Shown: in pieces, positions 8,136 to 10,420 of the stretch | How the letters are laid out: each line of letters opens with the position of its first letter | How positions within the stretch are numbered: the stretch's first letter is position 1 | IMG/VR virus record: IMGVR_UViG_2657245448_000004 | Source of the DNA: a virus | Lineage: Duplodnaviria > Heunggongvirae > Uroviricota > Caudoviricetes | Length of the DNA stretch: 22,461 nt | Direction: 5' to 3' (one strand) | Position numbers and translations under genes: made by a program | The notes under the pieces: generated by a model | Seen by the model: the letters and a program-made list of their open reading frames with translations, nothing else | What the model was told of the DNA's origin: nothing | The model's database searches: none

Positions 8136-8558
8136 ATGCGTGATATTCGACTGGTTTTAGAGCGATGGGGGGGCTGGGCTGCGAGCGAAGGTTGCAGTGT
8201 CTACTATCCACCTGTTTCCGCTGGATTTAAGAATCTGCTACCTGCAACGCAAGCCGGGCGGCTGAAGTGCAGTGACAATGACGGTCTGATCATCAGCTCT
8301 GCTATGAACTGCCTGAAGAAAAAAGATCCGTACCTGTGTACGCTCCTTGAGTGGCATTACATCCAGGCGATGCCTGTGAGGGCTATGGGTGTGAAGCTCG
8401 GCGTATCACACACTCAAGTTCTGAAGAGGCTCCAGGCTGCAGAGGGATTTATCGACGGCTGCCTGGCTATGCTGGACGTGGTTCTGGAAATGGATCAAGC
8501 AGTTCAGTCAAAGCCTAAGGCTATCAGGACTTTGCGAAGGAGCTGCCCGGCGGCATAA
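8136..8558 (+). CDS. Q: late-gene antiterminator, Q-like
   Basis: 140-aa ORF. N-terminus MRDIRLVLERWGGWAASEG and the QKAEGFIDGCLAMLDVVLEMD segment match my recollection of the prophage Q antiterminator family. It lies directly upstream of the lysis cassette with an intervening regulatory region. Confidence 0.75.
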   Translation: MRDIRLVLERWGGWAASEGCSVYYPPVSAGFKNLLPATQAGRLKCSDNDGLIISSAMNCLKKKDPYLCTLLEWHYIQAMPVRAMGVKLGVSHTQVLKRLQAAEGFIDGCLAMLDVVLEMDQAVQSKPKAIRTLRRSCPAA

Positions 8559-8739: not shown

Positions 8740-8966
8740 GCCCCATTCTGGGGAAAAGTTAATAAAACAGGGCTTTCGCTGCGAAAAAACGCTATGCAGT
8801 TTTTGCCCTTTTTTATGCACCTTTTATTCACTCGAATTTCGTCATTCTGGACCACTTAAGTTGATTAAATAGGCCTTTCATCGCAAATCTATTGCGAGCG
8901 GGGATCGTGTGGTTCCTATAACGTACATTATGTTAAATAACTTCCTTTTTTAACAAATTTAACAAG

Positions 8967-8990
8967 GTTCGCTATGGCGAACTTTTTTTG
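8967..8990 (+). terminator. second intrinsic terminator in the Q-holin intergenic region
   Basis: Perfect 6-bp stem GTTCGC / GCGAAC with loop tatg, followed by TTTTTTTGTATT. Confidence 0.55.
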
Positions 8991-9090
8991 TATTCAGGGC
9001 CCACCGAAGGACGGCTCATAACCCAATCCTACGGGCGTATACGCAGGGCCCGCCTTTCAACAACACCCCGTAATGGCGGAGGTGGGAAGT

Positions 9091-9432
9091 ATGAAAATGC
9101 ACAATGCTCCTCATTCCTGGCCTGACTTACTGGAACTCTTACAAAGTTGGTGGCGTGGAGATACGCCGTTGGGCGCAGTGGTTATGTCAATTGTTATGGC
9201 TGGCTTGCGCATTGCCTATTTTGGCGGTGGCGGCGGCTGGAAACGAAAAACGCTTGAGATTTTGCTCTGTGGTGCTCTGACGCTGACTTTTGCATCCGCT
9301 CTTGAGTATGTCGGATGGCCTAAATCGCTTTCTGTTGCCATTGGTGGTGGTGTTGGGCTGATCGGTGTCGATGCTATTCGTGGGGCTGCAATGCGAGTAA
9401 TCGGTAACAAGTTTGGTGGCTCTAAGGAGTAA
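9091..9432 (+). CDS. S: holin with lambda S-like dual-start (MKM) motif
   Basis: The ORF track starts at 9073, but a strong SD (GGAGG, 9078..9082) sits 8 nt ahead of the ATG at 9091. The product then begins MKMHNAPHSW, as lambda S begins MKMPEKHDLL (from memory), and has hydrophobic TM segments. It ends 3 nt before the endolysin gene. Confidence 0.8.
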   Translation: MKMHNAPHSWPDLLELLQSWWRGDTPLGAVVMSIVMAGLRIAYFGGGGGWKRKTLEILLCGALTLTFASALEYVGWPKSLSVAIGGGVGLIGVDAIRGAAMRVIGNKFGGSKE

Positions 9433-9435
9433 TTC

Positions 9436-9912
9436 ATGCAGACACTAAATTCCCAACGTAAAGCTTTCCTGGATATGGTGGCATGGTCAGAAGGAACGGA
9501 TAACGGGCGACAACCGACACGTAATCACGGTTATGACGTTATCGTCGGAGGTGAGTTGTTCACTGATTACTCCGATCACCCTCGCAAACTTGTCACGCTA
9601 AACCCGAAGCTTAAATCAACAGCCGCAGGCCGGTATCAGCTTCTTTCACGCTGGTGGGATGCCTACCGCAAGCAGCTTGGCCTGAAAGATTTTTCGCCAG
9701 AAAGTCAGGACGCTGTGGCGCTGCAGCAGATTAAAGAGCGTGGCGCTTTACCGATGATTGACCGTGGCGATATTCGTCAGGCAATCGACCGTTGCAGCAA
9801 TATCTGGGCGTCGTTACCTGGTGCAGGTTACGGTCAGTATGAACATAAAATCGGTGACCTGATTTCCAGGTTTAAAGATGCTGGTGGGGTGGTAAATGAA
9901 GCTGACTTATAA
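9436..9912 (+). CDS. R: endolysin, lambda R-like lytic transglycosylase
   Basis: 158 aa, same length as lambda R and near-identical over long stretches as I recall it (NSQRKAFLDM.AWSEGTDNGRQ.TRNHGYDVIVGGELFTDYSDHPRKLVTLNPKLKST.AGRYQLLSRWWDAYRKQLGLKDFSP). SD AAGGAG upstream. Confidence 0.95.
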   Translation: MQTLNSQRKAFLDMVAWSEGTDNGRQPTRNHGYDVIVGGELFTDYSDHPRKLVTLNPKLKSTAAGRYQLLSRWWDAYRKQLGLKDFSPESQDAVALQQIKERGALPMIDRGDIRQAIDRCSNIWASLPGAGYGQYEHKIGDLISRFKDAGGVVNEADL

Positions 9913-10420
9913 GATTGTCATCGCGGCATTTTTCTTCTCTGCCTTTGGGGCGCTCGTCTGGTCTGCAAACCATTACCACAGCAAGTATCAGGCAGAAAAG
10001 TTGCGGGCTGATAAAGCGGAAGGTGAAGCTGAATATCAAGGGAAAGTGATAGCTAATCAGGCATTAAACTTCAATCGTTTTAACCAGATAGCAGAAAACG
10101 CAAGCCGATTAAATTCTCTGGTCGACATCGGTCACGAGAAGACAGTCATCAAATACCGTGAGGTTCTGCTCCGTGAAAAGAACTGTGATTTCCCTGTTCC
10201 TGCTGATATTGCTGTCGGGTTGCTCAACTACGCGAACCGTTTACGCGCCAGCGCATTGCACGCCGATTCCGGGTACATTGACCCAGCCGGTGATCGTGCC
10301 ACTACCACCAGAACGTTGACATATTGCCAGGCTGTTCTGTGGATTAACCCATTGTTGGCAGCCATCGAGAAGGCGAATAACCAGTTGGCTGGTGTCCGAC
10401 AAATAGAACAGTCCCGGTAA
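9896..10420 (+). CDS. Rz: Rz-like inner-membrane spanin (i-spanin)
   Basis: 174-aa ORF overlapping the endolysin 3' end by 17 nt. N-terminal TM helix (IVIAAFFFSAFGALVW) followed by a charged, coiled-coil-like periplasmic domain; contains an embedded +1-frame lipoprotein gene. Confidence 0.75.
   Translation: MKLTYKIVIAAFFFSAFGALVWSANHYHSKYQAEKLRADKAEGEAEYQGKVIANQALNFNRFNQIAENASRLNSLVDIGHEKTVIKYREVLLREKNCDFPVPADIAVGLLNYANRLRASALHADSGYIDPAGDRATTTRTLTYCQAVLWINPLLAAIEKANNQLAGVRQIEQSR
10173..10319 (+). CDS. Rz1: Rz1-like outer-membrane lipoprotein spanin (o-spanin), embedded in Rz in the +1 frame, GTG start
   Basis: Hand translation of the +1 frame inside Rz: (M)KRTVISLFLLILLSGCSTTRTVYAPAHCTPIPGTLTQPVIVPLPPER. 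Lipobox LLSGC, proline-rich mature part, SD GAGG (10160..10163) 9 nt before the GTG. Absent from the ORF track (48 aa). Confidence 0.7.
   Translation: MKRTVISLFLLILLSGCSTTRTVYAPAHCTPIPGTLTQPVIVPLPPER

Follow-up and report, generated by a model that had tools for sequence, protein, structure and literature searches.

The window (the whole stretch of viral DNA that was analyzed, 22,461 nt) carries a lambdoid lysis cassette at about 9091-10420, with the small and large terminase genes next. The cassette holds the genes of a holin, an endolysin, and Rz (the i-spanin), and, wholly inside Rz, a short open reading frame (ORF) that is predicted to encode the o-spanin. The features are as follows.

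9091..9432, + strand, lambda-S-type holin (PF05106, E 1.2e-27; TIGR01594, E 7e-40, residues 8-116 of the 119-aa ORF)
9436..9912, + strand, endolysin, 158 aa (phrog_90, E 2e-63; annotated as endolysin in ON470582)
9896..10420, + strand, Rz, i-spanin, 174 aa (phrog_214 "Rz-like spanin", E 1e-58)
10160..10163, + strand, GAGG Shine-Dalgarno (SD) sequence of the embedded gene, read from the sequence (duplex with the 16S anti-SD, -6.4 kcal/mol)
10173..10319, + strand, predicted embedded o-spanin (Rz1-like) coding sequence, 48 aa and a TGA stop, +1 frame relative to Rz
10173..10220, + strand, predicted lipoprotein signal peptide MKRTVISLFLLILLSG (n-region MKR, a hydrophobic core, and L-S-G, then Cys)
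10221..10223, + strand, Cys17 codon, predicted lipid-modified residue 1 of the mature protein; the next residue is Ser
10221..10316, + strand, predicted mature periplasmic proline-rich segment CSTTRTVYAPAHCTPIPGTLTQPVIVPLPPER, 32 aa, supported by the wobble-phase switch and by +1-frame identity
10257..10259, + strand, Cys29 codon, the sole periplasmic Cys of the o-spanin and a candidate for an intermolecular disulfide, by comparison with lambda Rz1 C29 (PMC6139136)
10316..10417, + strand, Rz C-terminal helix LTYCQAVLWINPLLAAIEKANNQLAGVRQIEQSR, putatively homologous to the C-terminal half of overlapped-type o-spanins
10317..10319, + strand, TGA stop of the embedded gene, also the proposed frame-switch site relative to overlapped-type spanins

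The lysis cassette and the frame inside Rz

Rz runs from ATG 9896 to TAA 10418-10420 and has an N-terminal transmembrane segment and a periplasmic domain, with cysteines at positions 97 and 144; a search of NCBIfam gave no match to Rz. The frame of the embedded ORF is the +1 frame of Rz, since (10173-9896) mod 3 = 1; it opens at 10113, closes with the TGA at 10317-10319, and contains GTG codons at 10158, 10173, and 10185. Read from GTG 10173, the product is 48 aa long (MKRTVISLFLLILLSGC followed by STTRTVYAPAHCTPIPGTLTQPVIVPLPPER). A 9-nt spacer (10164-10172) lies between GAGG and this GTG (7 to 9 nt from the GAGG region in the duplex calculation), LLSGC is encoded at 10209-10223 (L-S-G-C at 10212-10223), and 7 of the 32 mature residues (22%) are proline.

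A first-pass annotation, made by reading the sequence, had described this arrangement: GAGG, a GTG nine nucleotides later, an LLSGC lipobox, a proline-rich segment, and a TGA, in the +1 frame inside Rz, with a 48-aa product. Every element was found at the coordinates it had given. It had also proposed that the gene completes the lysis cassette and would be missed by length-filtered ORF calling. Profile matches bear out the order holin, endolysin, i-spanin, and o-spanin; as for the second point, the longest mechanical ORF of the embedded frame (from GTG 10158) is 53 aa, under a 60-aa filter, so the ORF would be absent from a length-filtered track.

The signal peptide passes a PROSITE PS51257-type lipoprotein rule (own implementation, run from all potential starts in the six frames of the window), and Pfam LPAM_1 matches the embedded product at 18.5 bits (E 0.0027), just below its 20-bit cut-off. 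The rule returned 5 matches in the window versus a mean of 3.35 in 20 shuffles and was rejected as a significance test, being too unspecific. Within the lipobox, L14 is kept in 91 and G16 in 90 of the 93 nonredundant related loci described below.

Several features of the surrounding DNA were also recorded. The holin probably begins at an MKM dual-start motif (ATG 9091/ATG 9097; SD sequence GGAGG, duplex -10.8 kcal/mol), like lambda S107/S105. In ON470582, the holin is annotated with only 82 aa, from the equivalent of 9184, and that product looks N-terminally truncated. A terminator-like hairpin (8964-8995; 9-bp stem and T-run) lies in the gap of ~530 nt that separates the holin from the Q antiterminator gene (8136-8558) and is a candidate for a late-operon terminator read through by Q; neither a tRNA nor an Rfam family was found in this gap. 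A mosaic joint lies within Rz (9896-10012): nucleotide similarity to SfV, SfII, and SfIV (88 to 89%) covers the holin, the endolysin, and then the start of Rz and ends ~117 nt into Rz, so the transmembrane part of Rz is SfV-like, and its periplasmic part, with Rz1, is HK225-like.

Selection on the embedded frame

Related loci (n = 172) were drawn from 12 phage records (tblastn with the embedded peptide), 80 viral contigs, and 80 bacterial genomes belonging to many enterobacterial genera; a nonredundant set was formed at <90% nucleotide identity (n = 93). No stop codon interrupts the +1 frame within the interval in 92 of the 93 loci; the +2 frame is stopped in 92. Among the 92 loci that could be aligned, the lipobox Cys is invariant (92/92), Cys29 is present in 90, and a stop codon stands at the position aligned to 10317 in all. 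Such persistence in diverged homologs, with the +2 frame blocked, argues against a +1 frame that is open by chance, merely resembles a lipoprotein signal, and yields no product, a reading with which the shortness of the ORF, its GTG start, and the frequency of lipobox-like patterns (5 in the window, 3.35 on average in shuffles) would agree.

Codon-position variability also speaks against chance, because it changes phase exactly at the borders of the ORF. The third position of Rz codons has an entropy of 1.59 upstream, 0.40 over 10221-10316, and 1.47 downstream, and over the same interval the first position of Rz codons, where the embedded frame has its wobble, is the most variable (entropy, 1.14). 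The switch covers exactly 10221-10316 (Mann-Whitney p = 2.4e-14), and the usual Rz wobble returns at codon 142, which holds the last base of the TGA. At the protein level, the same nucleotides give an identity to the window of 0.75 for the +1 product and 0.52 for the Rz frame, and in 91/91 loci conservation is higher for the +1 product than for Rz. Ten distinct close variants from E. coli carry seven substitutions in the overlap, five of which are silent in Rz1 and change Rz. The chance reading, whose probability we put close to nil, is refuted as far as sequence evidence reaches, and the position of the ORF inside the Rz gene of a lysis cassette, taken with this comparative evidence, is far beyond chance.

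The same conservation might instead reflect constraint on the Rz protein or on an RNA structure, with no second coding frame. Rz residues 97-121 (CDFPVPADIAVGLLNYANRLRASAL) are indeed conserved too, so both frames are constrained over 10184-10260. Over 10262-10316, however, the first and second positions of Rz codons vary freely (entropy up to 1.96) and the third is nearly invariant, the reverse of the pattern expected from selection on the Rz protein and the one expected from a +1 coding frame. An RNA structure, for its part, would not keep a Cys codon, a stop codon, and a proline-rich product in the same frame, and searches of the window with Rfam (gathering thresholds) and ARAGORN returned no match, so the conservation is not explained by an RNA gene. 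We regard this explanation as very improbable. By the pattern of substitution, the embedded ORF is a coding frame under purifying selection and is the dominant frame over its C-terminal two thirds.

Reading of the frames placed the embedded gene in loci L009, L011, L080, L082, L136, L142, and L144 as well. The only related locus seen with a disrupted spanin pair was that of Kluyvera genomosp. 3 (L165; CP022114.1, 1501-1803), in which a frameshift within the overlap has made a fusion of the N-terminal part of Rz with the Rz1 tail (…ASAMHPIPGTLTQPVIAPLPPAQ*); from this fusion, it is probably a decaying prophage.

Family, start codon, and proposed function

The embedded peptide matches phrog_456 ("Rz-like spanin") with an E value of 7.5e-7. 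A tblastn search with it gave matches in 23 phage records. For at least 20 of these, the matching DNA is covered by an annotated spanin gene or by an unnamed ORF at the i-spanin position; one record carries no annotation, and Pm34, which matched least well, has its spanin genes overlapped. Along its whole length, the peptide shares 71% identity with embedded ORFs of phages HK225, mEp237, LLS, Flotzy, and PHB10 (70.8% over 48/48 residues for HK225 and mEp237, E about 1e-13), and the surrounding Rz is 53 to 54% identical to the HK225-family i-spanins (54% to that of HK225) and 31% identical to that of ZF40. The homologous ORF is annotated in the record of phage LLS as a 48-aa o-spanin from the homologous GTG, and in Serratia phages OS31 and BZS1 as an Rz1 precursor.

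Kongari et al. (2018; PMC6139136) grouped HK225, ZF40, and mEp237 as one embedded family for the i-spanins and as one for the o-spanins. In the supplement of that paper (SpaninDB), the o-spanins of HK225 and mEp237 have 48 aa, 32 of them periplasmic, begin at the homologous GTG, and extend from 0.53 to 0.81 of the i-spanin. The o-spanin of the window has the same values (start at 0.53 and end at 0.81 of the length of Rz; 48 aa, 32 periplasmic). By sequence and geometry, then, the embedded gene is a member of the HK225/mEp237/ZF40 embedded spanin family. The shared traits are the embedded +1 architecture, the GTG start, the pattern of cysteines, and the motifs CD... and TYCQ of the i-spanin and PAQC of the o-spanin. 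The window differs in AP-AH-C for VP-AQ-C, in LLSGC for LLVGC, and in the SfV-like first part of Rz (9896 to about 10012, 89% nucleotide identity). A further difference concerns LLS, whose homolog adjoins genes annotated as a pinholin and SAR-endolysin type, whereas the holin and endolysin of the window are lambda-S- and lambda-R-like.

The likeness to lambda Rz/Rz1 is one of architecture: a lipoprotein gene in the +1 frame inside the gene of a type II inner-membrane protein, at the end of the lysis cassette, with a proline-rich mature part. In both systems, the o-spanin has a single periplasmic Cys, and the i-spanin has two. There is no detectable homology in sequence. The lambda Rz1 family PF06085 did not match the embedded product at E <= 1, while lambda Rz1 itself, run as a control against the same library, scored 72.2 bits; BLASTP between the embedded product and lambda Rz1 gave 23% identity, mostly in the signal peptide. 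The mature part of lambda Rz1 is 40 aa and its gene ends at ~0.87 of Rz, versus 32 aa and 0.81 in the window. Of the name "Rz1-like" used in the first-pass annotation, the architecture and functional class therefore stand and the sequence relationship does not, given the missing PF06085 match; its embedded o-spanin architecture is corroborated by the +1 frame open in 92/93 loci and by the curated SpaninDB homologs of HK225 and mEp237, which agree in the GTG and in the 48 aa.

The o-spanin class is used here as a functional one, after Summer 2007 and Kongari 2018. The ORF lies wholly inside Rz, in the +1 frame and downstream of the holin and endolysin, and its product carries a lipobox of the form [LVI][ASTVI][GAS]C. 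Residue +2 of the predicted mature protein is Ser18 (Ser in 88/92 relatives) and not Asp. Under the sorting rule of the E. coli Lol system, lipoproteins with no Asp at +2 go to the outer membrane, the location predicted here.

A lipoprotein with another role, for example in exclusion or modification of the host (Cor/Bor type), was weighed as well. Weak matches to Cor were obtained (phrog_1119, E 0.0056; NCBIfam Cor, E 0.17), but they span the signal peptide alone (residues 1-21); the other NCBIfam matches of Rz1 were likewise weak and at the level of the signal peptide (best E 0.0018, far under the cut-offs). The gene sits inside the i-spanin gene of a lysis cassette, and homology links its mature part to curated o-spanins and, when the tail of Rz is added, to the LysC domain, which leaves such a role highly unlikely. 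We conclude, with a probability of about 0.93 on the sequence evidence, that 10173-10319 is the o-spanin gene of a two-component spanin and lies within Rz in the +1 frame.

Translation quite likely starts at GTG 10173. Its SD duplex (-6.4 kcal/mol) ranks in the top ~11% by strength among the window positions sampled (0.107 of them at <= -6.0), and the codon aligned with it is a start codon in 71/93 nonredundant loci (GTG in 64, ATG in 4, and TTG in 3). The earliest start codon of the open frame is GTG 10158, from which the precursor would have 53 aa (MRFCSVKRTV...). With its Cys at position 22, this version also passes the lipoprotein rule, and its exact sequence has been deposited as "putative lipoprotein Rz1 precursor" (BAI31869.1, from E. 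coli O103:H2 12009); KRR57707.1 has the same start. GTG 10158 has no SD sequence, however (duplex, -1.0 kcal/mol), the codon aligned with it is a start in only 3/93 relatives (it is mostly GGG or GGA), and the curated homologs begin at the downstream GTG and not at its equivalent, so that we consider a real gene starting at 10158 unlikely. The mature lipoprotein would be identical with either start, because the signal peptide is removed.

The remaining 22/93 relatives have no start codon aligned to 10173, and most of them must begin at an upstream TTG or ATG. Those from Hafnia, Serratia, and Providencia have a TTG behind an AGGAG-type SD sequence eight codons upstream; this TTG aligns with 10149 and is found in 31/93 loci. 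In ZF40 and a Vibrio phage, the o-spanin start is ATG. GTG 10185 of the window was rejected as a start: it has no SD sequence (duplex, -0.9 kcal/mol), the signal would be 12 residues long and lack a charged n-region, and the Cys would be at position 13, outside the range of the rule.

By analogy with lambda Rz/Rz1 and general lipoprotein biology, from which we infer export, lipidation, sorting, complex formation, the disulfide, and membrane fusion, the gene would act as follows. Translation would begin at GTG 10173 behind GAGG 10160-10163, and the precursor, with its 16-residue signal peptide, would be exported, lipidated at Cys17, and cleaved by signal peptidase II. Ser at +2 would send the 32-residue lipopeptide to the outer membrane, where the o-spanin, probably as a dimer linked by a Cys29 disulfide, would bind the periplasmic C-terminal part of Rz in a complex spanning the periplasm. 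Once the holin and endolysin had destroyed the peptidoglycan, the complex would join, fuse, or disrupt both membranes as the final step of lysis. In lambda, C29, C99, and C152 form homotypic intermolecular disulfides (PMC6139136), and o-spanin Cys29 with Rz Cys97 and Cys144 may be read as their parallels.

Overlapped spanins and the state of annotation

In spanins of the overlapped type (P2 LysB/LysC and those of Mu, SfV, and APSE), the o-spanin extends beyond a short i-spanin (~130 aa) and carries the C-terminal helix. The first indication of a relationship with the window came as weak matches to one profile, Pfam LysC (PF23793; 69 positions). Rz1 alone scored 16.9 bits (cut-off, 27 bits), its residues 12-46 covering profile positions 1-33, and residues 128-173 of Rz covered positions 25-68. 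An artificial composite of Rz1 and Rz 142-174 matched LysC over positions 1-68 (41.2 bits, E 1.6e-10), as did 30/30 composites built from diverse loci (best E 6.6e-15). Aligned with hhalign, the composites matched the overlapped o-spanins of SfV, Mulock, APSE-1, Pm34, and P2 (probability 99.1, E 4.8e-19, 84 columns), and Rz 138-174 by itself matched residues 68-109 of the SfV-type o-spanin (probability 90.5, E 1.3e-6). The HK225-type and overlapped-type i-spanins were also matched to each other (probability 98.2, E 5.9e-14); Rz 9-130 of the window aligns up to the last residue of its partner. Direct BLASTP of P2 LysB or LysC against the proteins of the window was uninformative, and the relation to them is apparent only via the Pfam profile and SfV-type intermediates.

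The boundary was examined in a three-frame comparison with SfV, Mulock, APSE-1, and Pm34. One T added in TT 10315-10316 turns the window into a single frame reading ...PPER-LTYCQAVLW..., with the spacing of SfV (...IPEP-LTYGASL...); eleven residues separate LT and LTY in both. Vibrio phage Pm34 has an early stop in the i-spanin frame and a single +1 ORF that carries both parts (LysC, 55.9 bits). The loci that bear on this comparison are window 10314-10417, L175 (SfV) 1540-1630, L012 (Pm34) 1489-1752, L176, L177, and L174 (P2).

By these alignments, the i-spanins of the two types appear homologous over Rz 9-130, as do the N-terminal halves of the o-spanins; the difference would be one of a single nucleotide of frame at CGTTGA (10314-10319), which in the window ends the o-spanin and leaves the helix on the i-spanin. 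The comparison thus tips toward one ancestral two-gene module, represented by both the HK225-type pair and the overlapped LysB/LysC-Mu/SfV/APSE type and re-partitioned by a single-nucleotide frame switch at CGT-TGA 10314-10319. The C-terminal helix of ~33 residues may well be part of the o-spanin in the overlapped type and covalently part of the i-spanin in the HK225 type. The summed periplasmic length appears roughly the same in both types (estimated by eye from the sequences).

Kongari et al. (2018; PMC6139136) reported no family that mixes embedded with overlapped or separated members. A full-text literature search for such a link by a frame switch, made in non-subscription journals, turned up that paper alone. 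If true, the relationship would be the first documented link between embedded and overlapped spanin families and a concrete route for the origin of embedded genes; it would also mean a role for the helix at the subunit interface on either chain and would provide a natural experiment on the location of the i-spanin/o-spanin interface. This homology is the only part of the analysis that a spanin specialist might find new. The embedded gene itself is already known, as a family and, through the deposited 53-aa ORF, as an exact sequence; it does not change knowledge of spanins, and its value is practical.

That embedded o-spanins are mostly unannotated has been described (PMC6139136), and public records agree. 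In four 100%-identical phage records, the o-spanin is missing (annotation taken from one of them, ON470582). Out of 124 RefSeq E. coli genomes with this Rz, the o-spanin is missing and Rz is a "hypothetical protein" in 25/25 of the matches listed. In the ON4705xx phage records, Rz is named "endopeptidase Rz"; neither this label nor "hypothetical protein" reflects the i-spanin role. With the o-spanin unannotated, the lysis cassettes of this prophage type are reported as incomplete, and adding it would give a corrected annotation and the right parts list for engineering or inducing such phages.

Two further records were noted. In that of vB_PvuS_Pm34 (PP059946.1), only the 133-aa i-spanin is annotated, as a "hypothetical protein"; the LysC-type overlapped o-spanin of 87 aa (L012 1489-1752) is unannotated. 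In Serratia phages OS31 and BZS1 (L003 1312-1635 and L010 1312-1635), a "lipoprotein Rz1 precursor" of 107 aa is annotated from a far-upstream GTG. In both, TTG 1465 behind an AGGGG SD sequence would give a normal precursor of 56 aa, so that the start in the deposited records probably lies too far upstream.
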